Shown here piece by piece: positions 12,134-37,041 of a stretch of 64,000 bases of DNA; position 1 is the first letter of the stretch; every line of letters begins with the position of its first letter. The position numbers and the translations under genes are program-made. Location: the NCBI GenBank assembly GCA_038128265.1, contig JAYPJE010000013.1, positions 22,908 through 86,907 on the forward strand, written 5' to 3'. Below the pieces are notes generated by a model, which saw nothing but the letters and a program-made list of their open reading frames with translations, did no database searches and was not told the DNA's origin. Source of the DNA: Gemmatimonadota bacterium. Lineage in GTDB: Bacteria > Latescibacterota > UBA2968 > UBA8231.

Positions 12134-13798
12134 TTACGAACTGGGCGCGGCACTGACTCGCTTTAGGGCTTCTTCGTCAATTGTGACGGGATACTTGTCT
12201 CGCAGCGAACGCACATACTGGACGTAGCTGCGCCTGGCCTTATCTACTTTGACGTAGGCCGTTGAGCGGCGCTGCGACTCCTTGTTGTAGGGAGCTTTTT
12301 CCTGTTTGCGCTCGAGCACTTTGAATACGGAGTAACCCGCGCCCGTCTTGACCGGTCCTCCCACCTGGCCGATTTCCAAACTCTGTACAATTTCGGAAAT
12401 CTCGGGAAAGAAAGCCTGGTTGTAGGCGTTGATGTCGAGGCGGCCGTTGTGGTGTGCTGCTTCTTCGCGCAGCGAGTACTGATCGTAGAGAGCCTGCGGA
12501 TCTTCGCCCTCTTGCAGCAGGCGCTTCACGCGCTGTGCGAGCGTGTCGCTGGCCACCAGGATTTCGGCTGCCGTCGTCGTCGCTGGGGGGATGAACTTCT
12601 GCGGATTCGCATCGTAAAAGGCGCGTGCTTCATCCTCCGTGACGGCGATATACTGATCGACCTGGCGCTTGCGCAGCATGTTCAATAGGGCTGCCGGCTT
12701 GCGTTCGGCCAGATGCTCTGCTATGACGGGATCTTTGTCCAAGCCCATTTCGTACGCTTCCGACATGAACAGGTGGGCTGGAATAAAAATTCGGTTGAGA
12801 ATGGTCGTTACTTCGGCCGGTTTGGCGAAGTCGCGGGGATTTACGTGTGCTTCTTTGGCATCGTGAAGAAATTCGTCGAGCGTTATTTCTCCACCCGCGA
12901 AGCTCACCAGGGGCATCTGCCCTTCGTCGCCGGGCAGCACGAGCGGGTCGTCGTTGCCGGCATCACTCAGCTTGGCTAATAGCCCCATATTATCTTCCCG
13001 AATTTCCGGCTTGTACTTGTCGTTTATAAATGCCAGCAATTCGGTTATGCGCTCTGCGCGCTTGCGCGCGAAGACTTCTTCCTTTACGCGTTGGTACGTT
13101 GCGTCGAGGGAAACGGGCATTTCGTCAAAGACTTTGAATACGACAAAGTGAATTTTCTGTTCGTGCGGCACAGGCGTCGGATCGGATATTTCCCCGACGG
13201 CCAGCGGAAAGACGCTCTCGGCGATTGCTGGAATGGTCTGATCGCGCAGCTTATAGCCGCCGCTGTCCCCTCCGCGCTCGGCCGTCTCGCGGTGGACGGA
13301 GTGCTCGGCGGCCAGCGCTTGGAAATCGCCTCCGGCTTCGAGCAGGGCAATGATTTGCTCGGCTTCCTCTTTTGTTTCGACCATGATGCCGCTAAAGCGC
13401 AGCGCGCGGTCGCGGTAGGTTGCTCGCTGATGCTCTTCGAGCTCTTCGTCGCTGACGGATATCTTTTCGACAATTTCCTGTTGCTGGTAGAGTCCGAAGA
13501 TCTTGCTCTTGACCTCTTTGGCTTCCTGTGCGCGAAACGCGGGATCGTTTTCCAGGTCGAGCGATCGCGCCTCGGCTAGGAGCACGGTCTTGTCGATTAG
13601 GCTCTCGAGTAGGTTGCGGTTGATATCCAGTGGAGAGCCGCCGGTTTTCATGCCATCGGGTATACTGGCCGTAAACGACGCGAACTCTTCCGCCGTAATC
13701 TGTTCGTCGCCTACAGTGACCAGCACGTTGGACTCTTCTTCGGGGGTGCTGCAGCCGCTCAACGCGGCAAAGATGAGGATGTATAATGCAATTTGCAT
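12134..13798 (-). CDS. SurA/PrsA-like peptidyl-prolyl isomerase lipoprotein with two parvulin domains
   Basis: AGGAGG RBS before ATG 13798; lipobox LSGC; VxVGDExIT N-domain; GGDFQALAAEHS...GGDSG and GQVGGPVKTGAGYSVFKV rotamase motifs. Confidence 0.85.
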   Translation of the reverse strand: MQIALYILIFAALSGCSTPEEESNVLVTVGDEQITAEEFASFTASIPDGMKTGGSPLDINRNLLESLIDKTVLLAEARSLDLENDPAFRAQEAKEVKSKIFGLYQQQEIVEKISVSDEELEEHQRATYRDRALRFSGIMVETKEEAEQIIALLEAGGDFQALAAEHSVHRETAERGGDSGGYKLRDQTIPAIAESVFPLAVGEISDPTPVPHEQKIHFVVFKVFDEMPVSLDATYQRVKEEVFARKRAERITELLAFINDKYKPEIREDNMGLLAKLSDAGNDDPLVLPGDEGQMPLVSFAGGEITLDEFLHDAKEAHVNPRDFAKPAEVTTILNRIFIPAHLFMSEAYEMGLDKDPVIAEHLAERKPAALLNMLRKRQVDQYIAVTEDEARAFYDANPQKFIPPATTTAAEILVASDTLAQRVKRLLQEGEDPQALYDQYSLREEAAHHNGRLDINAYNQAFFPEISEIVQSLEIGQVGGPVKTGAGYSVFKVLERKQEKAPYNKESQRRSTAYVKVDKARRSYVQYVRSLRDKYPVTIDEEALKRVSAAPSS

Positions 13799-14197
13799 GG
13801 GTGAAATCGCCTCCTGACCATGCGGGTTCCCTGCGAACAATGCGTAGGTAAGATACGAAATTCAGGGATTTTGGTCAGTCTAATCGCGAATTTGTTGTGC
13901 GGGAGGGTTTGCCCAAATGACTTTGTTTGAGCAATGGATGGGCGAAATGAGGGAGTGTTGAGGTGGGACCATCTCTATCGGCCACCGCCAAATCGGATGC
14001 GTAAAAAACGCTTGCTCTCCAACCTTGGGTGGGTTATTAATATACCGACATTGGCCACACCTGCATGTCGAAAGAGACATTGAAACGGTGAACTTTAAGG
14101 GCAATTCGTCGGTTGATAGGTTTTCTAAATACCTGTCCCAACGGCTTTTATCTACAATACTACCGATCTGATCGATCCATTGGCTAGGACGCATGCG

Positions 14198-16456
14198 ATG
14201 TCGCTGAAGGCGCGAAAATTGAGCAGGAGCTTCTCTCTGGTTTTGGTCCTACTCATCTGCGGGAGGGCGGCGGAGGTCGATGCTGAGGTCTTTGTGATAG
14301 GGGGACAGGGGCTCAGTTGGGAAGGTGGAGGCGACGGTATCGAGCCGACGGTTATCCGCGGTGCGCGCAAGGTGGAGCACACCAATGCTCCTGGTGGCGT
14401 CATTGACTTTCAGGTCGAGGGGCTGAGCAACTGGATTTTTCCCCAGCGCGCCGATACAACCCTCAATATCGCGGTCGGCGCGGCTTCGGAGGATCGCGGC
14501 GGCGAAATCACCTCGCCTAACGCTCAGCGCATCCGCGCGGACTTGCCCAACATGATCGACAACGACGGTGCCACGGCGCTCGATTTGCGCGTGGCAGCCG
14601 GACAGTCGGCTCAGGTGCTGGGAATTATTATCGACCTCGATTTGGGTGCACGCTTCGGCATCGACCGCTTCAAATTTTTTCCGCGCAATGCCGATCCTGC
14701 TTTTCCCGCGCCGGCGTTTCCCTTCCAAAATGATTTCATGCGCGGGTTCGAGCTCTTTCTCAACGATGGCACAGATCAGACCCAGCTGGAAGGACGGCCC
14801 ATCTACGAGACCATATTTCTCGAATCCCTCAACGAAAATGCCGTCGTAGACCTGCGGATCGAGCCACAGTACGTGCGCCATATTCGACTCAAGTCGCTGA
14901 CGACGGCTGGTTTTGAAATTGCCGAGTTTCAGGTGTTTGGCACGGGGTTTGTGCCCGAGGCTAGCTACCTGTCAGACGTGCTCGACTTTGGCGACTTAGC
15001 CCTCTTGGGCAATCTGCGCTGGATTCAGGACAAGGAAGGTGATGCAGCGCTTTCCAAGGTGGAGGTGCGCACGCGCGTTGGTCGAGACATAGACCCGGTT
15101 GAGTACAATAAGATCCGCCCCGGCGAGCGCATTTTCCGCAGCGGTGGTGGCGCGACGTCGGGCAATCGCTCCGGCACCACCACATCGGGCGATGCCGTGC
15201 CCTGGAAATTTGCCTCTGACGTCGACGATGCGGAGCTAAAGGAACTGGTCGAGACGGTGCTTGACAACGATCAGGTGGGCCTGCGCAATGCCATCGAGGC
15301 GTTTAATGAGCTGCCGCTCGATAAGCAGATACTGGTCACGTTGGAAGAAGACGAGTACAACAAGCTGAAAAACGAAGACAAGGGCGATATACGCGACGAC
15401 CTAACCAACTGGAGCGGTTGGTCGCCCCCCTATGCGCCGAGCGCCGTGGTTGCGGTGGAAGACATCGAGAATCCGTCGATGGGCGTGCCGATTATCGCCG
15501 CTGACCCTCGCCGCTACTTCCAGTTCGCCGTCGACCTATTCAGCGAGGATTTTGCCGCTGCTACGGGCGTTGGTTCGCTCTCCTTTGAGGTTGTGACGCC
15601 CCCTTTTGCAGAGCGTATTATCGGCGAGATCTCGCCGCGCGAGGCGGCGGTCGGACAGCGAACGCGCTTCGTCTATGCGGTGCGCAACCAGTCGCGTCCC
15701 GGTCAGGACCGCGGCTTTGATCGCTTTCGCATCGATACGCCGCTCAGGGCTGAAGCCGTTGGGCAGATATCGATCACGCGTCCCGGTGGCTCCACTACGT
15801 CGGCCGATTTTTCCGGTGCGGCGCTCGACGCGCTGCCGCTGACGCAGAACGGGATCAGCATTCTCGAGGTGAGCGATAACGCACTGGTCGTCGGTTTCCC
15901 GCTGATTGACGAGCACGGCACGGAGCTCAAAGTCGGCTTTGACTGTGCGGTGCTGCGCTTTGGGACTACTTTTACCGGCCAGGCGCTCAACTTTGCCGCT
16001 AGCGAAACGCTGGGACAGAATGCGGTGGCGGGCAACGCGGCCGACCTGAGCGCCGATGGGTTAGCGGATACCGACTTGCAGCCGCTGGGAACGCCGCTTA
16101 CGGGCAATTTGTCGGTAGTCGTGCCGATTGCGCGCGACCTGTTGGTAAACGTCGATGTCGTGCCGATGGCGTTTACCCCCAACGGAGACGGCATCAACGA
16201 TGCCGCCGAAATTCAGTACGATATTACCAATATTGCGCGCCCAGCGCCGGTGGCAATACACATCTACGACGTGTCCGGTCGCCCGGTGCGCGTGCTGTAC
16301 GACGACTTAGATACGAGCGGCCGCTTTGCTCGGGCGTGGGACGGGCGCGACGATGCCGGTGCGATGGTGCCACCGGGCAACTATCTGGTTTCTGTATCGC
16401 TGAGTGCCGGCACCGGCAGCCAGCGACAGATTGGCGTCGTTGCCGTGGCCTATTGA
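14198..16456 (+). CDS. Secreted protein: discoidin/CBM32-like domain, conserved scaffold, PNGDGIND/FlgD-Ig C-terminal domain (family A, copy 1)
   Basis: Signal peptide; IDNDGAT...DLDLG...FEIAEFQVFG; C-terminal FTPNGDGIND...IYDVSGRPVR...WDGRDDAG..VPPGNY; AGGA RBS before ATG 14198. Confidence 0.8.
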   Translation: MSLKARKLSRSFSLVLVLLICGRAAEVDAEVFVIGGQGLSWEGGGDGIEPTVIRGARKVEHTNAPGGVIDFQVEGLSNWIFPQRADTTLNIAVGAASEDRGGEITSPNAQRIRADLPNMIDNDGATALDLRVAAGQSAQVLGIIIDLDLGARFGIDRFKFFPRNADPAFPAPAFPFQNDFMRGFELFLNDGTDQTQLEGRPIYETIFLESLNENAVVDLRIEPQYVRHIRLKSLTTAGFEIAEFQVFGTGFVPEASYLSDVLDFGDLALLGNLRWIQDKEGDAALSKVEVRTRVGRDIDPVEYNKIRPGERIFRSGGGATSGNRSGTTTSGDAVPWKFASDVDDAELKELVETVLDNDQVGLRNAIEAFNELPLDKQILVTLEEDEYNKLKNEDKGDIRDDLTNWSGWSPPYAPSAVVAVEDIENPSMGVPIIAADPRRYFQFAVDLFSEDFAAATGVGSLSFEVVTPPFAERIIGEISPREAAVGQRTRFVYAVRNQSRPGQDRGFDRFRIDTPLRAEAVGQISITRPGGSTTSADFSGAALDALPLTQNGISILEVSDNALVVGFPLIDEHGTELKVGFDCAVLRFGTTFTGQALNFAASETLGQNAVAGNAADLSADGLADTDLQPLGTPLTGNLSVVVPIARDLLVNVDVVPMAFTPNGDGINDAAEIQYDITNIARPAPVAIHIYDVSGRPVRVLYDDLDTSGRFARAWDGRDDAGAMVPPGNYLVSVSLSAGTGSQRQIGVVAVAY

Positions 16457-16508
16457 CCACCGCGCAGATTTAAATATCAGAACTCGACCGCAAAGGGAGG
16501 GATTGAGT

Positions 16509-19295
16509 TTGAAAGCCTACAGTAATTGGAGTTTGCTCTGTCTGGCATGCCTGCAGTTTTGGGCCGTGGCGGCGTCGGGTCAGGATTACGGCGATCGACT
16601 TGGCGTTCAGCGAGGGGGCAAAGTGTCCTTTGAGCCACAGGGCTCCGGGGTGATGTTTGGTGCGCTCGATCCAGCCGTTAAAAAGTGGTATGTGCCACAG
16701 GAGTTGGCCACGGAGTACGGCTGGCGCCAGTGGGAATACTCCAACTATGCGCGCGACCCATACCAGCGCTACGTCAGCACCACGCTGGAGGGCGATTACT
16801 TCTACGATTTCTACGGCAATTTTATTGGCCGCGGTTGGCTAATCTACGACTGGCGTCAGGATCAGCCCCAGCAGTTGGGCAGCAGTATTTTCCAAAATAC
16901 GCGGTTTTCGTCGTGGTTTAACTCGGTGACTATTGGCGGCGAGTCCAAGGGCCAGTATCACTACGCCATTACCGTTGGTGATCGCATTCGCACTACGCTG
17001 ACGCCAATGACTTTTTCCAAGCCCACGTTTAATGGCGTGCAGATTGACTTTGCCTCCGATAAATACGCGGCGACGATCTTGGCTTCGCGCGCTAGTGAGC
17101 CGATCCGCGGAGCGACAAACCAGCCGATTACGCGCACCAATGCCACCAGCCTGTTTGGCGGTCGTGCGACATTCCAGCTAGGCGACTTTGTCGAATTGGG
17201 CGCGACGTTGGTCAATGCGCGCAACTCCAATACCAGCCTCGATCTGTTCAGCGGCGATATGATTGCCGGCACTCTGACCTCAGGTCAGAGCAGCACGCCG
17301 CTGACGGCGATTGCCATCGTTCTCAGCGACGACAGCCCGGCCGATGGAGAGGGCGGTGCGGCGCTGTTCTCACACGACGTGCGCATCACCAGCAAGAATT
17401 TCGAGACGGGCCGAGAGGAAGTCTTCACGCTGCAACAGGTGGTGCGAGCCGGCGCAGAGTGGCCCATTATTTTCGGTGGGTTTCAGCGCTCGGGTTTCTT
17501 AGCCGCCGACGGTCCAGAGCGCATTGTGCTCAACTACGATTTCGACGATCCGTCCTATATCGGTCCCGATCCGACTTCGATTATCAACGTCGAATTCGAC
17601 TACGTGATGGCCAACGACTTCAAGGTTGAGATGTGGTCGAGCCAGCAGACGGGGCAGCGGCCCATGCCGTCGGCGCCGCTGAGTCCCGAGTCGATTGACG
17701 CTTCTGAACCAGCTTTTATCAACGTGAAGCGGGCTGACGGCAATGTGCAGGACATATCCAATCTGCAGCGCGTGCGCTTTGAGTACGGTCTGCCAACGGG
17801 CAATCTGGTCGGCGGATTCTCCATTGAGGGAACGGACCTGCTGGGCTTTGACTTCTACGGCGAGTGGGATCGCAACAAGAAGTATTTCCAGTATCCCAAC
17901 GCCGCCACCTTCACCGCTGGCAAGCAGCACGAAATTTCCTCGCTGGATGCCGATGCGTGGCATTTCAACCTATCCAAGCAGGCCTATCCCTACTACCTGT
18001 TCGGCGAGGCCTACTCGTTTGATCGCGCCTATTCGACGACGGCTTACCTAGCCGACAACAACGGCGATGTGCAGTACGACAATACGCAGCGCTATCTCTA
18101 CGAGTTTGTCGAAGACAACGATGACTTAGATCGCTTCCCGGACTGGACGCGCTTCGGTCAGCTTGACGATCGACTGATTTTTCCCGGCTGGGACCAGAAC
18201 AACGACTTTATCAACGACTTTAATCAGAACGACAACGCGACCGTAACCAATATCTTGCCCGACTACGAGGAGCCCTTTCTGCGCTTTGAAGTGGATCGTC
18301 CGGAATTCCTCTTTGGCATTGATCACAACAACAACAACTGGATTGATCGCTTTGAAGACGACGATTTGCCCGACTATCCCTACAAGGCAGATCGCCGCGG
18401 CTACAACTTCTACGTCGGAGCCTTTGTCACGCCTCACATTAAGCTGAGCGTGGGGCGCACCGATGAGGACATGATTTCGGTCAATCGCTCCAATCGGACC
18501 AATTTCCTGCTCTTTACCTTTGACCGCGACTATCCGGGGTTGGGTCGACTGCAGATCTTTGAGTCGCTAAAGCGCAGCGAGGATACGATTCCCGACGATC
18601 GTCGCGAACCGACCCCCTTTGTTGAGGCCACCGGTGTGCAGCCGCTGGTCCGCGATATACTGCCGGCGCAGGATACCTGGATTAATTCTTCTTTTATTGG
18701 CTTTGACTACGAGGGCATCGAAAACCTGCGAGTAGCCAACAAGTTTAAGTGGGAGGTCTTTAACCAGGCTAGCAGCGGCATGCGGGATATCGACAATCGG
18801 CCACTGCGCGACAACTCGAGCTTTTTGGGAGCAATTAACAAGGTCGACTACCTGTATGAACTCGGACGCCTGAGTCTGCGCCCGCGCTTTAAAAGCGAAT
18901 ACCTGCGTATGACTCCTTTCTTGCAGAGCGAAGACAAGCGCCGGCAGTGGACCGGCACCGGCATTCTACTCGCCCAAATGCCGGCTCTGCAAAACACGCT
19001 GCTGCAGGCGGGTGTCGAACTGCTGTGGCTGCGCGACCTGGTCGCCGACGAAGAGGAAATGGTCGACCTAGGCATCACGCGGGAAACGGGTGACGTAAAC
19101 TCGCGCACCGTTGCGGTCCAGCTGTCAAATATCTCCAACTATCAGGGGTATGTGCTAACGACTCAGATCGGTCTGCGCTTCTCGCGGATACTCACTGAGG
19201 GCGTGACCGAAAATGCCAACGGCGGCTTCGATATTGGCAACGAAGCAAGCAGCGTCACGACCAGCTTCTTGACCGTATACGCGGGGCTACAGTAA
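16509..19295 (+). CDS. Large uncharacterised exported protein, putative outer-membrane beta-barrel (paralogue 1)
   Basis: GGGAGG RBS then TTG 16509; signal peptide; C-terminal third has alternating-hydrophobic strands; Asp/Asn-rich DxNxN motifs; clear homology to the next gene. Confidence 0.65.
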   Translation: MKAYSNWSLLCLACLQFWAVAASGQDYGDRLGVQRGGKVSFEPQGSGVMFGALDPAVKKWYVPQELATEYGWRQWEYSNYARDPYQRYVSTTLEGDYFYDFYGNFIGRGWLIYDWRQDQPQQLGSSIFQNTRFSSWFNSVTIGGESKGQYHYAITVGDRIRTTLTPMTFSKPTFNGVQIDFASDKYAATILASRASEPIRGATNQPITRTNATSLFGGRATFQLGDFVELGATLVNARNSNTSLDLFSGDMIAGTLTSGQSSTPLTAIAIVLSDDSPADGEGGAALFSHDVRITSKNFETGREEVFTLQQVVRAGAEWPIIFGGFQRSGFLAADGPERIVLNYDFDDPSYIGPDPTSIINVEFDYVMANDFKVEMWSSQQTGQRPMPSAPLSPESIDASEPAFINVKRADGNVQDISNLQRVRFEYGLPTGNLVGGFSIEGTDLLGFDFYGEWDRNKKYFQYPNAATFTAGKQHEISSLDADAWHFNLSKQAYPYYLFGEAYSFDRAYSTTAYLADNNGDVQYDNTQRYLYEFVEDNDDLDRFPDWTRFGQLDDRLIFPGWDQNNDFINDFNQNDNATVTNILPDYEEPFLRFEVDRPEFLFGIDHNNNNWIDRFEDDDLPDYPYKADRRGYNFYVGAFVTPHIKLSVGRTDEDMISVNRSNRTNFLLFTFDRDYPGLGRLQIFESLKRSEDTIPDDRREPTPFVEATGVQPLVRDILPAQDTWINSSFIGFDYEGIENLRVANKFKWEVFNQASSGMRDIDNRPLRDNSSFLGAINKVDYLYELGRLSLRPRFKSEYLRMTPFLQSEDKRRQWTGTGILLAQMPALQNTLLQAGVELLWLRDLVADEEEMVDLGITRETGDVNSRTVAVQLSNISNYQGYVLTTQIGLRFSRILTEGVTENANGGFDIGNEASSVTTSFLTVYAGLQ

Positions 19296-22240: not shown

Positions 22241-22309
22241 GATTGTCTGATGCGCCGGTGCGGTGCCGGTTGCTGACCCTTCCCCAAAGGCTTTTACGGG
22301 TATTTGACG

Positions 22310-27253: not shown

Positions 27254-29173
27254 ATGAATCGCTTCGGAATGTTGGGCTGTGCACTCTTTGCGTTGGCGTT
27301 GGGATGGAGTGCGGATGCGGGTGCGCTCACGATCTTTCGCATCGGCGGTGAAAATCTACCGCGGCCTGAGGTTGGCGGTGACTTCGAGTTTGTTCAGCTC
27401 AGCTGGGGCGAGGCAGAAGAGGCGCGTCACGGCAGCTTGGAGTTGCTAGAAGTCAGTCCGGACTACATCAAACCGCGCGAACTCGATCCCAGCGTGAATC
27501 TCACACCCGCGCTCGAAAGCAACGGGGGGCAGATCTTGGCTTTGGGTTGGACGGGGTGGGAGCGCCGACTCGAGGAGGATCTGGTCTTTTTTGACGAGGA
27601 TCCCAGTACCGCCTACTTAGGCGATGGGCACTTTGCCGCCCATGCGCCGCCGCAGAAGCACTTGATCTTTGATTTCGGCGGACGCTTTCTAATTCAGCGC
27701 ATTCGCTTTTTTCCGCGCGAAAAGCACGAGCACGATCGCTTCATACAAAAGTTTGTCATTGGCATTAGCGACGGGGACCCGCTCAAGGACGGTATGCGTG
27801 ACCGCGACTTTGGCACCCGCGGTCACTTCGTCAACTTTGACGTCGCGCACGAAATAACCGAGAACACAGTGTCGGATATTACGCTGGAAATGCCGCCGGT
27901 GCCCATCAAGCAGATTCTGTTTCAGGGTTTTGAAAACACGCGTGGCATCTGGGAAGTCGCGGAGTTTCAGATTTTTGGTATCGGCTATGCTCCATTTGCC
28001 CACTACGTGTCCAACGTCATCGACCTCGGAAAACCGGCTAGCTTAGGTCAGTTGACCTGGCTGGGGCGCCAGGATCAGGATGCAAAAATCGATATAGCCA
28101 TGCGCGCCGGTGATGATGACGATCCCAACAACTACTGGCGCTTCACATTCAGAGGCGATGAGCGCACCCGTTTCGCCACCAGCGGTCGGCCGCTCAAGCT
28201 GGCTGACTACAAGAAACTTGAATCGGGTGAGAAGGCGGGCATTACCCACGATACGGAGAATTGGGATTTTTGGTCGACGCCCTACGACTTCGAAGCAGAC
28301 GGTGGCAATTTGGTCGGCAACAAACCGCATCAATTTGTGCAGTTTAAAGTCGACTTTCTCTCTGGGTTAGAGGCTAGCGGACAGCTCGACTACCTGCAGT
28401 TTTCGGTGGCGATACCGCCCATTGCCAGCGAAGCGCTGGCCGAAATCGAGCCAAACCGAGCGCCAGCGGGCGAGGTGACGTCGTTTACATACAAGATCAA
28501 GCCGAACCTCGATAGCGGCGATTTGGGATTCGATAGCATATCAATTGACACGCCAGCCCGTGCCGTTGGCGTCGATGCCGTGCGCATTGGCGGCGTCGAA
28601 GAGGAATTTGAACTCGTCGATTTAGATGATACTGGCTTTACGGTTCGCGTTCCGCCGATCAGCATCCAGCAGACGGAAGAGCTGATCGAAGTCGACTTTC
28701 GCGCCGAGGTCTTTAAGTTTGGCACCGTGTTTTCAGGTAGGGTGTTTAACAGCGAAATGGTCGATGAGGTATATCAAACGCTGACGCCGGGCAATGCCGA
28801 CGACCTGTTTGACGGCGACGTGCTGCGCGTGGACTTAGCGGGACTTGAATCAAATACGATCCAAGCGATGCACCTGTCTTCGCCGGTTTTGACTCCGAAT
28901 AACGACGGCGTCAACGATCGCGTCACGATCGAGTACGATTTGCTCAACTTGGCGGGGTCTGTGCCGGCGACCGTCGATATTTACTCGCTTTCGGGGCAGC
29001 GCCTCAGCTCGGTGCCGGTGGCCAGCGTTGCCAGCGGTCGATTTTCAACCCAATGGGACGGCCGCGATGAAGGGGGCAAGATCTTGCCCCCGGGTATGTA
29101 CATTCTGCGTTTGGAAGTAGCTGCTGATCAGGGATCGGATGCCGTCGAACGCATCGTTTCGCTGGCCTATTGA
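27254..29173 (+). CDS. Secreted discoidin-like/scaffold protein with FlgD-Ig CTD (family A, copy 3)
   Basis: GGAGA RBS before ATG 27254; collinear close paralogue of 25302..27215 (shared DPNNYWRFTFRGDER and THDTENWDFWSTPY); ends VSLAY. Confidence 0.82.
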   Translation: MNRFGMLGCALFALALGWSADAGALTIFRIGGENLPRPEVGGDFEFVQLSWGEAEEARHGSLELLEVSPDYIKPRELDPSVNLTPALESNGGQILALGWTGWERRLEEDLVFFDEDPSTAYLGDGHFAAHAPPQKHLIFDFGGRFLIQRIRFFPREKHEHDRFIQKFVIGISDGDPLKDGMRDRDFGTRGHFVNFDVAHEITENTVSDITLEMPPVPIKQILFQGFENTRGIWEVAEFQIFGIGYAPFAHYVSNVIDLGKPASLGQLTWLGRQDQDAKIDIAMRAGDDDDPNNYWRFTFRGDERTRFATSGRPLKLADYKKLESGEKAGITHDTENWDFWSTPYDFEADGGNLVGNKPHQFVQFKVDFLSGLEASGQLDYLQFSVAIPPIASEALAEIEPNRAPAGEVTSFTYKIKPNLDSGDLGFDSISIDTPARAVGVDAVRIGGVEEEFELVDLDDTGFTVRVPPISIQQTEELIEVDFRAEVFKFGTVFSGRVFNSEMVDEVYQTLTPGNADDLFDGDVLRVDLAGLESNTIQAMHLSSPVLTPNNDGVNDRVTIEYDLLNLAGSVPATVDIYSLSGQRLSSVPVASVASGRFSTQWDGRDEGGKILPPGMYILRLEVAADQGSDAVERIVSLAY

Positions 29174-29179: not shown

Positions 29180-31780
29180 ATGAGACGGTCGCCCCGCAAC
29201 GTTATACCGTGGCTGTGCTGCATTGCGCTGCTATCGATGAGTGCAGCCGAGGGGCAAGGCCATCGCATTGCGGCCAATCAGGTCGTTGTAGAGGGCAGGC
29301 ATTGGAATAACTGGACCTTTCCCGCCGGCACGCTGGACATATCCAATCGGGGCGAGGTGATGCCCCGCGTTCTGCACAAAAATATCAACGCCTCGTTTGA
29401 TATCCTCGATTATTTGCGCCTCCATCCGCCGCCGGCACTCGGCAGCAAAGCGCCCGAAGACATCCAATTGATCGATGCAATACAGGCGGGGTCCAATCGC
29501 GAAGGCGTAGTGCATATTCTCGACGGTGATATGTCGACCTATTGGGAGCCCGACCTGCTGCAGCCAGACGTCGACCTCGAGTCGCAGTGGTGGTTCACTA
29601 TTGATCTCGGGCGCTTTGTCTTTATTGAAAAACTGGTGCTGAAATTTGTCGACGAGGAATTGGGCGATCCGTTCCTGCTGTTTGACGTTCTCGTCTCCAA
29701 CGGTCTGAATCCAGTCCGCGTTCCGGGCTCAAAATCTCCTGAGTATAAGACCGTCTTACGCAACCTACAGCCGAATAAGAGCCAACGCGTATTTGAGATT
29801 GATTTCAGCAAGGTGCCCGAAGCGCAGAGCGAAGGGGTGCGCTTTGTGCAGGTAGTCGTCAACGGCAGCGACTTGCAGCAGGGCCGTGAGGTCGATCGCG
29901 AGGTCTACGACGCGCTTGATGCGGATAGTCGGGGGGCGGTCCAGTACAACAAGAAAATGGCTGACGGGCGCGAGGTAGTAATTAAACAGAGCGTTTACGA
30001 GCAGCTCGAAGGGGAGCGACAGGGTTCCATACGCTACTTCATGCGCGAGCGTCCCCGCTTGGCGGAGCTCGAAGTATGGGCCACGGGCGATGAAATTGTC
30101 GGCGGTACGGTCGAACGCGGTGGCTTTATCACATCGACTCAGCAGATCAATACGGCGACCGTCATCGACGGCGATATCCAGAGCTTTGGCACGGTGACGA
30201 CCACCATCGCGGAGATTACCGATCCCAATGAATTGAATTTGGATATGTTTTTTGACCTGGGTTCGTTCTATTGGATCGACACGCACCGTATCGTCTACAA
30301 CCCGGGCAATGTGCACGCGCGCAGTTTCTTTGATTACCAACTAGACTTTTCCGACGGATCGCGTGCACCGGATGGCGAGCTGAGCTGGTTTACTGCGCTC
30401 TTCCGCCGGCAGGAGGCTACGCTCAAGGCCGTTATTGAAGGCAATCGCTTTGCACCGGTAAAAGCCCGTTTTTTTCGCCTGCAGGCCAAGGCGCGCAATA
30501 TGCGGGGCAATGCGCTGGTACCCGTCGCGGAAATGCAGCTTTACGGCGAGGGATTTCAGCCGCGCGTCGAGTTGGAGTCGGATCTGATCCGCCTTGGCGG
30601 GAGCCGCAACCTGCTGTCGATCCGCTGGGATGCCGATACGCCACCGGGCACGAGCGTGCAGATTCAGACGCGCACCGGTAATGAACTTGGCGAGGTGCTG
30701 CACTACTTCAAGAAAGACGGCACGGAGGTTACGGAGTCGCAGTATGGCAAGCTGCTATCGCTATTCAAGGGAGAAGTTGTTCCCGAGGAAGTGCCGGGCA
30801 ACGATTGGAGCGATTGGAGCGAGCCGTATACGCTCGCGTCGGGTAGCCCGATTACCTCGCCGTCGCCGCGCGAATATCTCAAGGTGCGGGCGACGCTGGT
30901 CTCTGACGATCCAGCCGCCGCCGCCGCGCTGCGCTCTATCCGCCTCGATTTCGTCGATCCGGTAGCGCAGGGCTTGGTGGGTGAGGTCGTTCCGTTTCAG
31001 GTCGATTCGCTGGGCGTAGAGCAGCCCTTCTCGCTGTATATCCGCCCCGACTTTGTGCGCAGCGATAGCGGCTTTGACGAACTACTGCTGGTGGCGCCGT
31101 CGGATATGGCACTCGACTTTGTTGGTTTTTACGCGGGCAAAGAGGATGATTTCCTAGGTGATGGGCGCGATATAAACGGCCTAGCGGTGGCCGATGTAGA
31201 ATTGGTGACTAGCGGAGGAGACAGCCTGCAGGTGGCTTTCCCCCCGATTACCCCGGGAGACGATGTCGATGTGTTGCGCTTGGATTTCCGCACCGCCCTT
31301 TTCTCGACGGGAGCGGTCTTGCGACCCGCGCTGCAGCAGCGTGGCAGTGCCAACAGCGCATGGCAGCGCGTCGATTCGGGTAATGCCATCGCCCTGGGTC
31401 AGGGCAATACGACCACGTTGGTAGGCGCTGTCGGTAGCAATCAGCTGATTCGCGACGTGTCGGTGAACCCCAGGGTCTTTTCTCCGAACGGCGATGGGAT
31501 CAACGACGAGACGGCATTTGAATTTACCGTTGTTCGCGTGGGCGATAGCAGCCCGGCTGAGGTGATTGTCTACGATCTGAGCGGTCGTCAGGTGCGGCGC
31601 TTGGTCGAGCAGCGCTTGGTGAGCACGGGCGCGCGTGCGCTGCACTGGGATGGTCGCAGCGATGCGGGCGATATGGTAATGCCCGGCGTGTACTACGCCC
31701 GTCTACGCGTCGCCACAGAAACCGCCGGTGCGGGAATTGACAATGCCGAGGCTCTGCGGCCCATTGTCGTCGTTTACTGA
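29180..31780 (+). CDS. Secreted protein with two discoidin-like domains, scaffold and PNGDGIND/FlgD-Ig CTD (family B, copy 1)
   Basis: Signal peptide; DGDMSTYWEP...IDLG...LAELEVW; second IDGD...FDLG...AEMQLYG; FSPNGDGIND; ends IVVVY. Confidence 0.82.
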   Translation: MRRSPRNVIPWLCCIALLSMSAAEGQGHRIAANQVVVEGRHWNNWTFPAGTLDISNRGEVMPRVLHKNINASFDILDYLRLHPPPALGSKAPEDIQLIDAIQAGSNREGVVHILDGDMSTYWEPDLLQPDVDLESQWWFTIDLGRFVFIEKLVLKFVDEELGDPFLLFDVLVSNGLNPVRVPGSKSPEYKTVLRNLQPNKSQRVFEIDFSKVPEAQSEGVRFVQVVVNGSDLQQGREVDREVYDALDADSRGAVQYNKKMADGREVVIKQSVYEQLEGERQGSIRYFMRERPRLAELEVWATGDEIVGGTVERGGFITSTQQINTATVIDGDIQSFGTVTTTIAEITDPNELNLDMFFDLGSFYWIDTHRIVYNPGNVHARSFFDYQLDFSDGSRAPDGELSWFTALFRRQEATLKAVIEGNRFAPVKARFFRLQAKARNMRGNALVPVAEMQLYGEGFQPRVELESDLIRLGGSRNLLSIRWDADTPPGTSVQIQTRTGNELGEVLHYFKKDGTEVTESQYGKLLSLFKGEVVPEEVPGNDWSDWSEPYTLASGSPITSPSPREYLKVRATLVSDDPAAAAALRSIRLDFVDPVAQGLVGEVVPFQVDSLGVEQPFSLYIRPDFVRSDSGFDELLLVAPSDMALDFVGFYAGKEDDFLGDGRDINGLAVADVELVTSGGDSLQVAFPPITPGDDVDVLRLDFRTALFSTGAVLRPALQQRGSANSAWQRVDSGNAIALGQGNTTTLVGAVGSNQLIRDVSVNPRVFSPNGDGINDETAFEFTVVRVGDSSPAEVIVYDLSGRQVRRLVEQRLVSTGARALHWDGRSDAGDMVMPGVYYARLRVATETAGAGIDNAEALRPIVVVY

Positions 31781-31815
31781 TTGGTCAGGTTAATAGAGGA
31801 CCGGAGTTAATTCTT

Positions 31816-34419
31816 ATGTCATTGAGCGCTCTTTATTCAAACAGCAACCGCTTGATACCGGCGTTGTGTATGGCCATATGGGCGATGGGTTCCGCCGATT
31901 CGGCGCGGGCTCAGGGGTACCGGTTGAGTGCGAGTCAGGTTATTGTTGAGACCCAGCGCCACTGGGAAAACTGGGTATTTGCCCAGGGCACGCTGCAAAT
32001 TGATGGAGGACAGGTGCAGCCGTCGGCCATGCGGCGCAATACCAACGCCGTATTTGATATCGTCGATTTTCTGCGGCTGAATACCCCGTCTGAAATCAAG
32101 AAAGACGCCGAAGACATCGAGCTGATTGATGCCGTTAAAGCGGGTTCGAATCGCGCCGGTGTGGTCAATATTATGGACGGTGATATGTCCACCTACTGGC
32201 AGCCCGATCGCGCTGAAGAAGGGAGCGACCTAGCGACGCAATGGTGGTTTGTCATCGATTTGGGCCGCTTTGTCTTTGCCAAGAAGCTTGTGCTAAAGTT
32301 CGTCGACGAAGAACTGGGCGACCCCTTCCTGCTCTTCGATGTATTGGTTTCCGATGGACTGGCACCGCCGCGCGTTCCGGGTTCAAAAGTGCCGCGCTAC
32401 CAAACGGTGCTCCGGACGCTGCAAGAGAACAAAGACCAGCGCGTATTTGAAATTGACTTAGATGGGCTGAGTGACGAAGCCGAGAGCGAGGGCATTCGAT
32501 ATGTGCAAGTCGTCGTAAACGGCACGGATGCGGGCCGCGGACGGGAAGTCACCAAGGAAGCATACGATGGATTGCTTGCGGCCGACCGAGGTGATATCGA
32601 ATACAATAAAAAGTTGATTAACGGGGGCGAAGTGCCGGTTCGGCAGGATGTTTTTGAACAGCTAGAGCTCGAGCGCCAAGGCGCCGTGCGCTACTTTCGT
32701 CAGGAGCGCCCGCGGTTGGCCGAGCTCGAAGTTTGGGGTTTGGGCGACGAAATTCTCAGCGGAACCGTTTCGCGCGGCGGCTTTATTTTTGCAACCGAGC
32801 CCAACGTGGCGCTCAGTTCATTTGTCGACGGCGACCGCGGCACGATCTCCCAGATGGTTTGGGACGCGCAGCCCGGCGCTACGCAGATCTTTGATCGCGA
32901 GCTCTTTTTCGACCTCGGTTCGTTTTATTGGATCGACACACACCGCATGGCCTACGGCGGCCTATTTCGCCGCTTTGGCGACTATCAACTACAGTTCTCC
33001 GACGGATCGCTCGCCCCGGATGGGACGTTGCAGTGGTGGACGTCTTTCGACCGTTCGCAGGCCGGGCGCGTGCGCGAAAACTTTGAAGGAAACGATTTTG
33101 ATCCGATTAAAGCGCGTTTCTTTCGCATGTTTTGGAAGATAAAAGAGCGCGGTAGCAATCGCGTTGAACTGGCAGAGATTCAGCTCTACGGCCAAGGCGT
33201 GCAGCCGCGCGTCGAATTGGAATCGGATTTGATCCGCCTGGGGGGCAGCCGCAATCTCCTGTCCATAGAGTGGGATGCCGATACGCCGCCGGGCACGAGC
33301 GTGCAGATTCAAACGCGCACGGGTAACGAACTGGGCGAAGTGCTCCACTACTTTAAAAAAGATGGCACCGAAGTGACCGAGGCGCAGTATGGAAAGCTGC
33401 TGTCGCTGTTTAGGGGTGATATTGTGCCGGAGGAAGTGCCGGGCAACGACTGGAGCGATTGGAGTGAGCCGTACGCGCTCTCGTCGGGCAGTCCAATTAC
33501 GTCGCCGTCGCCGCGCGAATACCTTAAAGTGCGGGCAACGCTGGTGTCCGACGATCCAAACGTCGCGGCCACGCTGCGCTCTATTCGACTCAACTTTGTC
33601 GATCCGGTAGCACAGGGCCTAGTGGGTGAGTTGGTGCCGTTTCAGGTCGATTCGCTGGGCGTAGAACGCCCGTTTTCTCTGTATATCCGACCGGACTTTG
33701 TGCGCAACGACAGCGGCTTTGATGAACTGCTACTCGTCGCACCTTCCGACATGAGTCTGGACTTTACGGGGCTCTTTGCTGGAGCAGAGGCCGACTTTGT
33801 AGCGGGGAGCGACCTTGAAGCGATGGTTCCCGAAGGAGTGGACGTAGCCGCTAGTGGCGGCGACAGCCTGCGCGTCGCCTTTGCCCCTATTGGCCCCAAC
33901 GACAATATTGACCTCTTGCGGCTCGACTTTCGCACGGCGCTTTTCTCGACGGGGGCCGTATTGAAACCTCTGCTTCAGCAGCGTGGAGCAACAAACGCTT
34001 GGCAGCGAGTGGACGCGGGTAACGCCGTCTCACTGGGAGAGGGCAATACGACGACGCTGGTCGGCGCCGTCGGTCGCAAAGAACTTATTCGCCATGCCGA
34101 AGTAGTGCCGCGCGTATTTTCACCTAATGGCGACGGCGTCAACGACGAAGCGGCCTTCGAGTTTACCGTTATTCGGGTGAGTGATAGCAGCCCAGCCGAA
34201 GTGACGGTATACGATCTGAGCGGCCGTCGGGTGCGCCATCTGGTCGAGCAGCGAGCCGTTAGCACCGGTCCGCGCTCCCTGCGTTGGGATGGTCGCGATG
34301 ACGCGGGTCAACTCGTGGCGCCGGGCGTGTACTATGCGCGGTTACGTGTTGCCACGGAAACGTCGGGCGCCGGCATTGAAAGCGCCGAAGCACTGCGCGC
34401 CGTATCGGTGGCATATTAA
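31816..34419 (+). CDS. Family B paralogue, copy 2
   Basis: Collinear with 29180..31780; near-identical ESDLIRLGGSRNLLSI...SPSPREYLKVRATLVSDDP; ends VSVAY. Confidence 0.82.
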   Translation: MSLSALYSNSNRLIPALCMAIWAMGSADSARAQGYRLSASQVIVETQRHWENWVFAQGTLQIDGGQVQPSAMRRNTNAVFDIVDFLRLNTPSEIKKDAEDIELIDAVKAGSNRAGVVNIMDGDMSTYWQPDRAEEGSDLATQWWFVIDLGRFVFAKKLVLKFVDEELGDPFLLFDVLVSDGLAPPRVPGSKVPRYQTVLRTLQENKDQRVFEIDLDGLSDEAESEGIRYVQVVVNGTDAGRGREVTKEAYDGLLAADRGDIEYNKKLINGGEVPVRQDVFEQLELERQGAVRYFRQERPRLAELEVWGLGDEILSGTVSRGGFIFATEPNVALSSFVDGDRGTISQMVWDAQPGATQIFDRELFFDLGSFYWIDTHRMAYGGLFRRFGDYQLQFSDGSLAPDGTLQWWTSFDRSQAGRVRENFEGNDFDPIKARFFRMFWKIKERGSNRVELAEIQLYGQGVQPRVELESDLIRLGGSRNLLSIEWDADTPPGTSVQIQTRTGNELGEVLHYFKKDGTEVTEAQYGKLLSLFRGDIVPEEVPGNDWSDWSEPYALSSGSPITSPSPREYLKVRATLVSDDPNVAATLRSIRLNFVDPVAQGLVGELVPFQVDSLGVERPFSLYIRPDFVRNDSGFDELLLVAPSDMSLDFTGLFAGAEADFVAGSDLEAMVPEGVDVAASGGDSLRVAFAPIGPNDNIDLLRLDFRTALFSTGAVLKPLLQQRGATNAWQRVDAGNAVSLGEGNTTTLVGAVGRKELIRHAEVVPRVFSPNGDGVNDEAAFEFTVIRVSDSSPAEVTVYDLSGRRVRHLVEQRAVSTGPRSLRWDGRDDAGQLVAPGVYYARLRVATETSGAGIESAEALRAVSVAY

Positions 34420-34449
34420 ACGGTTTGGATACCCATGGGAGAAACGCAG

Positions 34450-37041
34450 ATGATCGGTAGGTGCCGGTGGCTGTGCGGTGTGCTGGTGGCCGTTTTCGCC
34501 TCGATGCTATTGGTTGGTGAACTGCGGGCACAGGGCCACAGGGTTAGTGCCAATCAGGTTGTTATCAACGCGCAGAATCACTGGGAAAACTGGGTGTTTC
34601 CGCAGGGCACGCTCAGTGTCGTCGATGGCACCGTGCGGCCAAAGAGCATGCAGCGGAATACCAATGCGGTTGTCGATATCGTCGACTTTCTGCGTCTCAA
34701 TACGCCCGATCACATCAAGAAAGACCCCGAAGATATCGGTCTGGTCGACGCAGTCAAAGCCGGCTCAAATCCCGCCGATGCATTTAAGGCGATCGACGGC
34801 GATCCCACCACCTATTGGGAGCCAGCGCCGGTGCCCGCAGGCATTGACCTGCCTGCGCAGTGGTGGTACAACCTCGACTTGGGCCGCTTTGTCTTCGCAA
34901 AGAAAATCGTCCTAAAATTTGTCGATGAAGACCTGGGCGACCCATTCTTGCTCTTTGACGTGCTTGTTTCCGACGGACTCAAACCCAAGCTCGCCCCCCT
35001 GTCGACGACGCCAAACTATTCTACGGTCATGCGTCTGTTACAGGAAAACAAGAGCCAGCGCGTCTTTGAAATCGACCTGCAAAATGCCGACAAAGAGACG
35101 CGCAGTCAGGGGCTGCGGTTTATTCAGATCGTGGTCAATGGAACCGACGGTGCGCGCGGCCGGCAGGTCACAGAGGCCGAATACGACGAACTGCCGGCCG
35201 CCGAGCGCGGTGCAGTTGAATACTACAAATATCTGCTCGACGGCGGTCAGCTACAGGTAGACCAGGATGTCTACGAAAAGCTGAGCCCGGAAAAGCGAGC
35301 CGATATCCGCCACTTTCGTCGCGAGCGACCGCGCCTGGCCGAAATTGAGGTGTGGGGTGAAGGAGACGAGATTCTGAGTGGCACCGTTTCGCGCGGCGGC
35401 TTTATCTCCACAACGGAGCCGGGCGTGGCGTTGGGCCCCTTTATCGATGGCCGGCGAGAGAGCTCTTCCATCGTCGTTTGGGGCGTGGGTGGTTGGACCG
35501 GGGCTACCACCGACATCAACAATCGCGAACTGTTTTTCGACCTAGGTACATTCTACTGGGTCGATACGCATCTATTGGCCTACGGCGGCCGCAGCTTTGG
35601 GGACTACCGCATCGAAGTGTCGGACGGCAGCCTGGCCCCAGACGGCAGTTTGGAGTGGAATCGCGTGCTGAATCGCGATCAGGGCGGCGTGTACCAGCGC
35701 CCGTTTGAAGGCAACCGATTTGATCCCGTACAGGCGCGCTTTTTTCGCATGCAGTGGACGGTTGCCGCCTTTGGTGCCAGCGCTATACTGGCCGAAGTGC
35801 AGCTCTACGGCGAGGGATTTTTGCCGCGTTTGTCGCTTGAATCCGATTTGATTCGCCTCGGGGGAAGTCGAAACCTGCTCTCCATCGAATGGGACGCCGA
35901 TACGCCGCCGGGGACGAGTGTGCAGATTCAGACGCGCACGGGTAATGAATTGGGCGAAATCTTGCACTACTTCAAAAAGGACGGCACCGAAGTAACCGAG
36001 GCGCAATATGGCAAGCTGCTGTCGCTGTTCAAGGGAGATATTATTCCCGAAGAAGTGCCGGGCAACGATTGGAGTGATTGGAGCGAACCCTATACTATTC
36101 CTTCCGGTAGTGTGATTACTTCGCCGTCGCCGCGCGAATATCTCAAGGTGCGCGCGACCTTGGTTTCGGACGATCCGTCGGCTGCGGCTGCGCTGCGCTC
36201 TATTCGACTCAACTTCGTCGATCCGGTAGCGCAGGGACTGGTTGGAGAGGTCGTGCCCTTTCAGGTCGATTCGCTGGGCATCGAGCGCCCTTTCTCCCTG
36301 TACATCCGACCGGATTTTTTGCGCAATGACAGCGGTTTTGACCAACTGCTTCTGGTTGCTCCTTCCGATATGGAATTGGCGTTTGCCGGCCTCTATGCCG
36401 GTTCGGAAGACGACTTTATTGCCGGGGGGGATATGGAACGCATGCGCGTGGAGGATGCGCTGGTGGCTGAAACCAATGCGGACAGTCTGCAGCTTCGCTT
36501 TCCGCTTGTTGGGCCCAATGGCGACGCGGAGCTACTGCGTCTCGATTTTCGCACGGCGCTGTTTTCTACGGGTGCGGTGCTGCGGGCTTCACTGCAAAAT
36601 GGATCCGGCGGATCGGCTGCCTGGCAGCGCGTAGACGCGGGTAATGCCGTTGCGCTGGGCGCGGGTAATACGACGACGCTGGTCGGCGCGGTCGGTCGCA
36701 ACGAGCTACTCTATGACGTGCGGGTTGAGCCGCGTGCATTCTCACCCAACGGCGACGGGATTAATGACGACACGGTCTTCGAGTTTACCGTTGTGCGCGT
36801 GGGCGATAGCAGTCCGGCAGAAGTAATTATCTACGATCTGAGCGGTCGTTCGGTGCGGCGCTTAGTTGAGCAGCGCGCGGTTAGCACGGGACCTCGATCT
36901 CTGCGCTGGGACGGGCGCGATGACGCCGGTCACGTCGTCATGCCGGGTATCTATTACGCGCGCCTGCGCGTTGCGACGGAAACGGCCGGTGCCGATATAG
37001 ACAATGCCGAGGTGCTGCGTACGATATCGGTGGCCTACTGA
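34450..37041 (+). CDS. Family B paralogue, copy 3
   Basis: GGGAG RBS before ATG 34450 (alternative start 34435); collinear with the two preceding genes; ends ISVAY. Confidence 0.82.
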   Translation: MIGRCRWLCGVLVAVFASMLLVGELRAQGHRVSANQVVINAQNHWENWVFPQGTLSVVDGTVRPKSMQRNTNAVVDIVDFLRLNTPDHIKKDPEDIGLVDAVKAGSNPADAFKAIDGDPTTYWEPAPVPAGIDLPAQWWYNLDLGRFVFAKKIVLKFVDEDLGDPFLLFDVLVSDGLKPKLAPLSTTPNYSTVMRLLQENKSQRVFEIDLQNADKETRSQGLRFIQIVVNGTDGARGRQVTEAEYDELPAAERGAVEYYKYLLDGGQLQVDQDVYEKLSPEKRADIRHFRRERPRLAEIEVWGEGDEILSGTVSRGGFISTTEPGVALGPFIDGRRESSSIVVWGVGGWTGATTDINNRELFFDLGTFYWVDTHLLAYGGRSFGDYRIEVSDGSLAPDGSLEWNRVLNRDQGGVYQRPFEGNRFDPVQARFFRMQWTVAAFGASAILAEVQLYGEGFLPRLSLESDLIRLGGSRNLLSIEWDADTPPGTSVQIQTRTGNELGEILHYFKKDGTEVTEAQYGKLLSLFKGDIIPEEVPGNDWSDWSEPYTIPSGSVITSPSPREYLKVRATLVSDDPSAAAALRSIRLNFVDPVAQGLVGEVVPFQVDSLGIERPFSLYIRPDFLRNDSGFDQLLLVAPSDMELAFAGLYAGSEDDFIAGGDMERMRVEDALVAETNADSLQLRFPLVGPNGDAELLRLDFRTALFSTGAVLRASLQNGSGGSAAWQRVDAGNAVALGAGNTTTLVGAVGRNELLYDVRVEPRAFSPNGDGINDDTVFEFTVVRVGDSSPAEVIIYDLSGRSVRRLVEQRAVSTGPRSLRWDGRDDAGHVVMPGIYYARLRVATETAGADIDNAEVLRTISVAY

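Follow-up and report, generated by a model that had tools for sequence, protein, structure and literature searches.

Why should six secreted proteins that share one C-terminal domain (CTD) be encoded around two coupled genes for giant outer-membrane proteins? The question is raised by a 64,000-nucleotide stretch of contig JAYPJE010000013.1 (assembly GCA_038128265.1, positions 22,908 to 86,907), referred to here as the window, from a bacterium that is placed in the Latescibacterota. The window contains a cassette of about 25 kb, in which a foldase gene on the minus strand diverges from a co-oriented plus-strand run of cargo genes, barrel genes and two further genes. A preliminary description had listed a foldase, two barrel paralogues and six CTD-bearing cargo proteins with common motifs, and all of these are present where it had placed them. 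Two of the cargo starts noted at that time, 14198 and 34450, are internal ATGs of the open reading frames (ORFs) that open at 14180 and 34435. The same description had seen in these genes one dedicated structure with a private cargo repertoire. Instead, the region is one copy of a cassette that is present about 20 times in the genome, and no other copy of this cell-surface module, which Latescibacterota-type bacteria have in many copies, is as well conserved; the module probably serves the capture of molecules at the surface of the cell. [quoted passage not shown]

A cassette present in many copies

Three hidden Markov models (HMMs), one each for the barrels (from their alignment), the cargo body and the CTD, were run on all ORFs of at least 100 amino acids (aa) in the source genome (4.29 Mb in 102 contigs, 84% complete). 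The search recovered 24 barrels of 870-1054 aa and 60 cargo proteins of 550-1113 aa, and together the genes for these proteins take up 4.7% of the assembly (about 200 kb). Immediately upstream of 16 of the 24 barrels is a cargo gene on the same strand, with a gap of -131 to +108 nucleotides (nt). Three of the other eight barrels follow another barrel, two have a cargo gene about 0.85-1.05 kb upstream, one is truncated where its contig ends and two have none. Just over half of the cargo genes (35 of 60) are found no more than 10 kb from a barrel. Open frames of 1404-1916 aa that were considered as cargo-barrel fusions proved to be stop-to-stop frames overlapping other genes and were rejected.

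The same arrangement is found outside this genome. Eighty related loci were compared, a biased sample that consists of the best matches to barrel 2 of the window in species-representative genomes. They hold 162 barrel ORFs and 227 cargo ORFs by HMM. Tandem barrels, that is two within 1.8 kb, occur in 71 of the 80 loci, in 64 the first barrel is immediately preceded by a cargo gene, and downstream cargo genes are present in 72; the gene order cargo-barrel-barrel-...-cargo recurs in most of them. The genes thus belong to one envelope module and are linked in function. By the HMM counts in the genome and in the related loci, the shared architecture far exceeds chance, and the synteny that the preliminary description had proposed to examine is conserved. 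Three outcomes had been named there as speaking against the system, namely a lack of co-occurrence across genomes, large proteins that do not model as barrels, and a match of all members to an already characterised enzyme or system; none of the three was found.

The distribution of the two families was also determined in a phylum sample of 151 genomes. A barrel match is present in 95 of them, including every one of the 63 further genomes from the family to which the window belongs; two sister families, represented by 49 genomes, have none. Cargo matches (E <= 1e-17) were obtained in 93 of the 95 barrel-positive genomes versus none of the 56 barrel-negative ones, with a threshold that was fixed after the data had been seen and among genomes whose kinship makes the counts non-independent. 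Within the source genome, distance matrices were compared for the 16 adjacent cargo-barrel pairs. The correlation of barrel distances with those of the cargo body was r = 0.67 and with those of the CTD r = 0.50, and neither value was reached in any of 2000 permutations. These correlations show that each pair has duplicated and diverged as a unit.

Cargo proteins and their C-terminal domains

All six cargo genes of the window are on the plus strand and all six products end in the same type of CTD, referred to here as class II. Cargo 1 (14180..16456, 758 aa) has a signal peptide, a CBM32/discoidin-type fold at about residues 92-258, a helical insert, immunoglobulin (Ig)-like sandwiches and the CTD at about 655-758, ending in VAY. 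Cargo 2 (25302..27215, 637 aa) and cargo 3 (27254..29173, 639 aa from the ATG at 27254 of an ORF that opens at 27095) are shorter. Cargo 4 (29180..31780, 866 aa) has an extra N-terminal discoidin-like domain and is followed by cargo 5 (31816..34419, 867 aa) and cargo 6 (34435..37041, 868 aa). The six proteins fall into three subgroups, cargo 1, cargo 2/3 (61% identity) and cargo 4/5/6 (64-68%), with 24-33% identity between subgroups. They align end to end with the invariant positions S265, G271, L276, W281, R299, G301, Y393, K395, L396 and W411, and further invariant columns are W414-S415-x-P417-Y418, G512-F513-D514 and, in the CTD, P667-N668-x-D670-G671-x-N673-D674.

The AlphaFold2 (AF2) model of cargo 1, made with 42 relatives, has a mean predicted local distance difference test score (pLDDT) of 86.1. 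Residues 95-255 superpose on the CBM32 structure 4a42_B with a VIA-align Z-score of 15.1 and a root mean square deviation (rmsd) of 2.0 A over 123 aligned residues. This entry is followed by dozens of other CBM32 entries, many of them with bound galactose or N-acetylgalactosamine. Foldseek gave galactose-oxidase entries, which VIA aligned to the N-terminal lectin module, and stacked Ig-like domains; no enzyme domain was found in this search of the cargo 1 model. The model indicates that cargo 1 carries a CBM32-type lectin fold, in keeping with the binding-type subunits that the preliminary description had proposed. Sequence matches to F5_F8_type_C and F5_F8_type_C_2 in cargo 4-6 remain under threshold (20.5-27.3 bits versus cut-offs of 28.2 or 27.8; cargo 4 reaches 22.7 and 23.5 bits, respectively), and the Pfam scan matched no SusD domain in the cargo.

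Are the tails of the cargo proteins different from the other sorting domains of the genome? There are 102 CTD-bearing ORFs in the genome, and in 98 of them the CTD match ends no more than 15 residues from the C-terminus. All 60 cargo proteins have the class II CTD and score 44-154 bits on the CTD model, and the remaining 42 ORFs score 19-49 bits. The class II consensus is ..vfTPNGDGiND...iyDL.GRrvr...WDGRd..G..vpPG.Y...VAY, and its most frequent endings are VAY (33), VVY (11), IAY (5) and LAY (4). The 38 non-cargo CTDs that could be aligned have the consensus nyPNPFNa.T.I.f...vYn.lGQrVRtL...WDGRD..G..vaSGvY...LLr. The motif N-x-DG-x-[ND]D is found in 47 of the 60 cargo CTDs versus none of the 38 others. 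The nyPNPFN and LLr/k signatures are taken here to be marks of type-A CTDs, and the non-cargo class is read, on these sequence features, as ordinary type-A tails. The class II CTD would then be a tail specific to the cargo family.

Comparisons with existing models of such tails gave scores close to several cut-offs. Two of the six window cargo proteins reach the cut-off of 27 for the type-B Pfam family CHU_C (PF13585) with 29.2 (cargo 1) and 29.5 bits, and the other four are just below it at 25.1-26.9 bits, the last value being that of cargo 2. FlgD_ig is passed by five of the six (33.3 bits for cargo 1 and 38.6 bits for cargo 2). The type-A model TIGR04183 (cut-off 23) is passed by cargo 2 alone with 23.5 bits; two of the other proteins come to 17.2 and 16.2 bits. 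The CTD in the model of cargo 1 consists of seven strands at 655-756, and the C-terminal part of the protein superposes on the C-terminal region of PorU (6za2_B; VIA Z 12.2, rmsd 2.5 A, 99 residues aligned). The class II CTDs have the general features of T9SS CTDs, being terminal Ig-like sandwiches on Sec-exported proteins in a genome that bears SprA.

The giant barrels

Giant barrel 1 (16404..19295, plus strand) is encoded in an ORF of 963 aa. Its likely start is a TTG at 16509 with a GGGAGG ribosome-binding site in front, which gives a protein of 928 aa with a signal peptide that ends in AVAASG before QDYG and leaves 52 nt between the stop of cargo 1 and the start of the barrel. Giant barrel 2 (19295..22240, plus strand, 981 aa) is translationally coupled to barrel 1, whose stop overlaps the ATG of barrel 2 (TAATG). 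Aligned from end to end, the two proteins share 40% identity (BLASTP E = 0).

Both belong to a family without a name. A protein search gave 895 relatives of barrel 2; all 120 relatives listed are called 'hypothetical protein' and lack precomputed Pfam domains, and they come mostly from Latescibacteria metagenome-assembled genomes. When 1.84 billion cluster representatives were searched exhaustively with a profile, only 959 relatives were obtained at E <= 1e-3 and 324 at E <= 1e-30. Pfam and NCBIfam scans of the two window barrels at E <= 0.01 gave no family match, and in the Pfam scan this included Plug, TonB-dependent-receptor, S-layer homology (SLH) and coiled-coil domains. The family profile gave a single chance-level match among the sequences of the Protein Data Bank (PDB; E 0.42) and found no SlpA chain there.

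The AF2 model of barrel 2, made with 66 relatives, has a pLDDT of 73.4 and a predicted template modelling score (pTM) of 0.70 and consists almost entirely of beta-hairpins, with about 27 strands of at least 8 residues counted in the DSSP string. About 130 N-terminal residues after the signal peptide are of low confidence and have little regular structure. The series of hairpins is interrupted at about 521-662 by a poorly modelled segment that holds an acidic insert and has the lowest confidence. The top Foldseek match is Deinococcus SlpA (8ae1_A, E 1e-8) with a template modelling (TM) score of only about 0.25, and it is followed by MtrB (6r2q_B, E 4.2e-8) and by LptD entries (E ~2e-6). In an exhaustive VIA-align search SlpA again came first (7zgx_A, Z 14.0, rmsd 7.5 A, 406 residues aligned), and the remaining rows are outer-membrane or mitochondrial barrels throughout, with PorV at Z 9.2. 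The large proteins thus model as outer-membrane beta-barrels, as had been suspected from their sequences. The Pfam family SlpA_C (PF21620, cut-off 35) has sub-threshold matches of 16.7-30.2 bits in 5 of 26 distant members of the barrel family and of 28 and 15 bits in two paralogues from the same genome; the window barrels have no match at E <= 0.01. A distant link to SlpA-type barrels is possible, with weak Pfam matches that may be compositional.

The acidic insert is rich in Asp and Asn and lies at about residues 546-663 of barrel 2 (20930-21283), with a counterpart in barrel 1 at 18093-18395; an example of its sequence is DLNNNGWVDRFE. It is the most conserved part of the family, and the invariant Asp and Asn columns of the barrels are concentrated in it. 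This example fits the EF-hand loop pattern, and the inserts of both barrels, searched alone against Pfam at E <= 10, gave no match. From its sequence, the insert may be a calcium-dependent docking or plug element.

Elsewhere in the genome are two clusters of barrel paralogues that are divergent, with 222-337 bits on the barrel HMM: three stand in tandem on contig C35 (8135-16791) and two on contig C7 (60118-70212). They lie 3.6-6.6 kb from ExbB genes (C35:23371 and C7:73825), and the 19 typical barrels have no such listed neighbour.

The foldase

The divergent gene at the start of the cassette (12134..13840, minus strand, 568 aa) encodes a SurA-like lipoprotein foldase with two parvulin (PPIC) domains, and translation probably begins at a Met that lies 14 codons inside the ORF. 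Both Rotamase_2 (76.3 bits) and Rotamase (65.9 bits) match above cut-off, each in two stretches. The match to SurA_N_3 is weak (24.4 bits versus a cut-off of 27.2), and the score on the SurA equivalog NF008038 is 20.6 bits with a cut-off of 394; the protein stays well under every equivalog cut-off. The predicted architecture is SurA-like. The N-terminus, MQIALYILIFAALSGC, closes in the lipobox LSGC (...FAALSGC).

A paralogue of the foldase is encoded in 65 of the 80 related loci, and it takes one of three positions, divergent upstream as in the window, between the two barrels, or downstream after cargo. The source genome has 11 paralogues with 22-25% identity to the window foldase, and 9 of these are no more than 6.2 kb from a cassette gene. 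Since the gene stays with the set while its position varies, a functional link between the foldase and the cassette is likely.

Type IX secretion genes in the genome

Is a secretion system available for proteins with such tails? The preliminary description had seen no canonical T9SS core gene, and this holds for the window, where none was found among the 37 ORFs scanned, but not for the genome. SprA is encoded on contig 26 (592.8 bits, cut-off 200) and PorU on contig 56 (656.9 bits, cut-off 420), where it is adjoined by a PorV-like gene that scores 171.7 bits, under its cut-off. A T9SS translocon is therefore available from genes on other contigs. None of the 95 barrel-positive genomes of the phylum sample is without SprA. 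One review names other phyla of the Fibrobacteres-Chlorobi-Bacteroidetes group, Gemmatimonadetes among them, as possible holders of a T9SS (PMC11285876).

The best matches to the PorP/SprF family (TIGR03519) in the genome have 52.7 and 25 bits, with a cut-off of 90.55, and are located outside the cassettes, so the 60 cargo proteins lack PorP partners. Plug-domain TonB-dependent receptors number 9 in the genome and none of them is part of a cassette.

Proposed function

How could the cargo, the barrels and the foldase work together? In the Bacteroidota, cargo proteins with type-B CTDs have cognate PorP/SprF barrels. Examples are SprB-SprF and Fjoh_3952-Fjoh_3951 in Flavobacterium johnsoniae and PG1035-PorP-PorE in Porphyromonas gingivalis (PMC12618676, PMC9143113). 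PG1035 is bound by PorP and SprB by SprF (PMC9143113), and orphan type-B substrates use a common shuttle (PMC12618676). Three features of this logic recur in the cassette: its CTDs form a second class, the cargo gene is followed directly by a barrel gene, and there are orphan cargo.

In the proposed sequence of events, the cargo proteins would be carried over the inner membrane by Sec and would pass the outer one via the SprA translocon, with the class II CTD as the recognition signal. The co-encoded giant barrel would then take over the cargo and hold it at the cell surface. The foldase paralogue of the cassette may escort the unusually large barrel, or the cargo, across the periplasm. The resulting lectin-on-barrel complexes would bind differing glycans or other ligands, and the wide barrel may double as an entry channel.

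Several observations weigh against this proposal. The barrels are unrelated to PorP/SprF, with no match at E <= 0.01 and about three times the length of the 292-position model, and the binding of cargo to barrel is putative. Co-divergence and synteny speak for inheritance as a unit and not for contact, as neighbours that do not touch would look alike. There are more cargo genes (60) than barrels (24), and 20 cargo genes are on barrel-free contigs, albeit in an assembly of 102 contigs. None of the six window cargo proteins passes the type-B model TIGR04131 (cut-off 35), and three have matches at E <= 0.01 (21.1, 18.5 and 17.9 bits). The class II CTD is modelled as a seven-strand sandwich that resembles type-A CTDs and PorU, whereas type-B CTDs are predicted as a four-strand sheet (PMC12618676). 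No match to GldL, GldM or GldN was obtained in the 84%-complete genome, where control genomes were equally silent, and the matches to GldK were all generic, reaching no more than 69 bits versus a cut-off of 350. Finally, SprA is matched in 150 of the 151 genomes of the phylum sample, including the 49 barrel-free genomes of the two sister families. Because SprA-bearing genomes without barrels exist, the barrels are an accessory to the T9SS and do not belong to its core.

Other genes of the cassette and its neighbourhood

Two further genes stand between barrel 2 and cargo 2. The first (22304..24049, plus strand) encodes a polytopic membrane protein with C-terminal tetratricopeptide repeats (TPR). 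Only TPR families match it, at residues 412-561; the membrane part of about 400 aa belongs to no family, and a language-model atlas look-up of this part gave a best score of 0.87 and no named family. The gene is present in 22 of the 80 related loci, which are the closest orthologous cassettes only.

The second gene (24251..25159, plus strand) encodes a secreted protein of 302 aa and is present in 58 of the 80 related loci at varying positions. It has an invariant His directly after the predicted cleavage site (AxA followed by H) and an invariant DxDHSGG motif; both residues, H21 at the predicted mature N-terminus and H129 in the motif, are conserved in all 28 relatives that were aligned. Copper histidine-brace proteins are marked by such a combination, in which the N-terminal residue is His and another His is conserved. 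On this sequence pattern the protein is a candidate histidine brace, as a lead only. No family of lytic polysaccharide monooxygenases was among the Pfam matches of the 28 members at E <= 1, and searches of PDB sequences with the single sequence and with the family profile gave no match. In the atlas, the neighbours of the protein are clusters with CBM9_1 in 13-37% of their members, and one of the 28 relatives has a CBM9_1 match (E 6e-4); the fold is possibly CBM9/DOMON-like.

The cassette is flanked on both sides by five FG-GAP proteins. Four of these, at 135-8818, also have ASPIC/UnbV (CRTAC1-like), and the one at 37180-38907 has FG-GAP only. The gene at 37180 extends the co-oriented run, but the 80 related loci yielded no relative of it. 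Adjoining the foldase, at 8826-11890 on the minus strand, are genes for a pentapeptide-repeat protein and a TPR protein of 509 aa each. Relatives of the two occur in 21 and 26 of the 80 loci, respectively, mostly in the same upstream position, and they may be part of a conserved neighbourhood. Just downstream of the run, at 39845-41707, is a gene for a GT-C-type (PMT_2-like, 28 bits) membrane protein fused to TPR repeats, with relatives in 5 of the 80 loci. Further away, a divergent pair of DUF6785/DUF6784 membrane proteins (42777-44717 and 45760-47676) is accompanied by aldo-keto reductases and solute-binding proteins.

Alternative explanations

Could the cassette serve uptake in the first place? 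A somewhat unlikely but serious alternative is that it follows SusCD-like logic, with barrels that import the ligands caught by the cargo and with cargo that is fixed at the surface via the PorU/PorV route. The genome has many diverged copies of the cassette, as is the case for polysaccharide utilisation loci, and the CBM32-type fold predicted for cargo 1 and the possible CBM9-like secreted protein also point in this direction. The approximately 27 long strands of the barrel model would mean a wide lumen, the Plug-domain TonB-dependent receptors of the genome are only 9, and the two divergent barrel clusters on C35 and C7 are near ExbB genes. However, Plug, TonB-dependent-receptor and SusD domains were found in no cassette protein, the scans of the cassette gave no ExbB/ExbD, no inner-membrane transporter and no glycoside hydrolase, and the separate CTD class of the cargo is left unexplained. 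Since Plug and TonB-dependent-receptor domains are missing from the barrels, and SusD domains from the cargo, the likeness to SusCD that the preliminary description had raised is an analogy of logic only. The uptake explanation overlaps with the docking proposal, and both could hold together.

A bolder view, which is speculative and judged unlikely, is that the cassette is a new, self-sufficient outer-membrane machine of an uncultured phylum. SlpA-like barrels would receive or translocate privately addressed lectins and hold them, and together with the His protein, which is maybe a copper histidine-brace oxidase, they would bring about glycan capture, cleavage and entry and so fill the role that SusCD loci play in the Bacteroidota.

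A self-contained export route is improbable. It would make the giant barrel both translocon and anchor for the class II CTD cargo, independently of SprA, with the foldase as periplasmic escort. The class II CTD does differ from the other CTDs of the genome at both hallmark positions, and it has an aromatic end; the beta-signal of outer-membrane proteins likewise ends in an aromatic residue, to which the VAY end can be likened. The tight coupling of cargo and barrel genes, the presence of a SurA-like foldase for each cassette type and the failure to detect GldL, GldM and GldN could be explained in this way. On the other hand, all 95 barrel-positive genomes of the phylum sample also have a SprA match, the fold of the CTD resembles the T9SS CTD of PorU itself, and the cassette encodes no energy source.

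It is equally improbable that the barrels are an SlpA-like major outer-membrane or S-layer scaffold with the cargo as a decorating surface layer, for although SlpA heads both structural searches (8ae1_A in Foldseek and 7zgx_A in VIA) and SlpA_C has sub-threshold matches in 5 of 26 distant members and two paralogues of the same genome, these weak matches may be compositional, TM-scores are only about 0.25, SLH and coiled-coil parts are missing from the barrels, a sequence search of the PDB with the family profile retrieves no SlpA chain, and two dozen diverged paralogues suit a ligand-specific role better than a single lattice.

Significance

Nearly 5% of the genome is devoted to a module for which no function has been described and whose proteins fall into no named family. 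No paper on Latescibacteria together with T9SS or such a cassette, or on Latescibacter together with outer membrane and CBM32, was found in the open PubMed Central and bioRxiv papers that were searched, and a broader search listed only papers on the T9SS of Bacteroidota among the matches shown. The window provides the best-conserved orthologous form of the cassette (cargo-barrel-barrel, membrane-TPR protein, His protein and five cargo). It also provides the quantified split of the CTDs into two classes, the table of phyletic co-occurrence, the foldase that is faithful yet mobile, and the weak SlpA_C link.

If it is true that the giant barrels partner a private class of tails, the rule of one shuttle per CTD class extends past the Bacteroidota and does so with a wholly different barrel. 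It would then also become easier to study how the widespread Latescibacterota of seas and estuaries, which have no SusCD systems, bind polymers and perhaps take them up. As the two CTD classes are cleanly separated within one genome, tail swaps offer a direct experimental route.

Comparison with known systems

LptD-LptE and MtrB-MtrA/MtrC are the next-best Foldseek matches after SlpA and have barrels of similar size. The LptD and MtrB barrels work with a protein partner. They have no sequence relation to the giant barrels, however, and the cassette has no LptE-, MtrA- or MtrC-like genes. Among the parvulin chaperones SurA, PpiD and PrsA, the window foldase has its likeness in a SurA-like N-terminal region, two parvulin domains and export. 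It differs from them in being a lipoprotein and in having expanded to 11 diverged paralogues that accompany cassettes.

SlpA of Deinococcus and Thermus (SlpA_C, PF21620) is the top structural match of the barrels and has weak sub-threshold Pfam matches in some members of the family. The barrels of the cassette differ in that they have no SLH or coiled-coil part, superpose with a TM-score of about 0.25 and show no sequence match to any solved chain. They are also multi-copy and paired with CTD cargo.

The SusC/SusD loci are similar to the cassettes in that many diverged copies per genome pair a large barrel with surface proteins of the glycan-binding type. However, the cassette has no Plug, TonB-dependent-receptor, SusD or SusE match, its cargo proteins are not lipoproteins and are delivered via a T9SS-type tail, and the scans revealed no enzymes or regulators in it.

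The type-B cargo with PorP/SprF barrels is the nearest described parallel. As in that system, a surface protein with a second, non-type-A CTD is encoded directly upstream of a dedicated barrel, there are several pairs per genome as well as orphan cargo, and the translocon genes are located elsewhere in the genome. The CTD of the cassette shares the PNGDGxND-type motif and scores around the CHU_C cut-off. The cassette CTD differs in being a seven-strand sandwich that ends in VAY and misses TIGR04131. The barrels of the cassette, which are often translationally coupled tandems, have 870-1054 aa compared to the 292 positions of the PorP model and give no PorP/SprF match. A SurA-like foldase and the secreted protein with a predicted N-terminal His are additional components of the cassette. 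The scale is also different, with 24 barrels and 60 cargo proteins in this genome compared to 12 type-B substrates in F. johnsoniae (PMC12618676).

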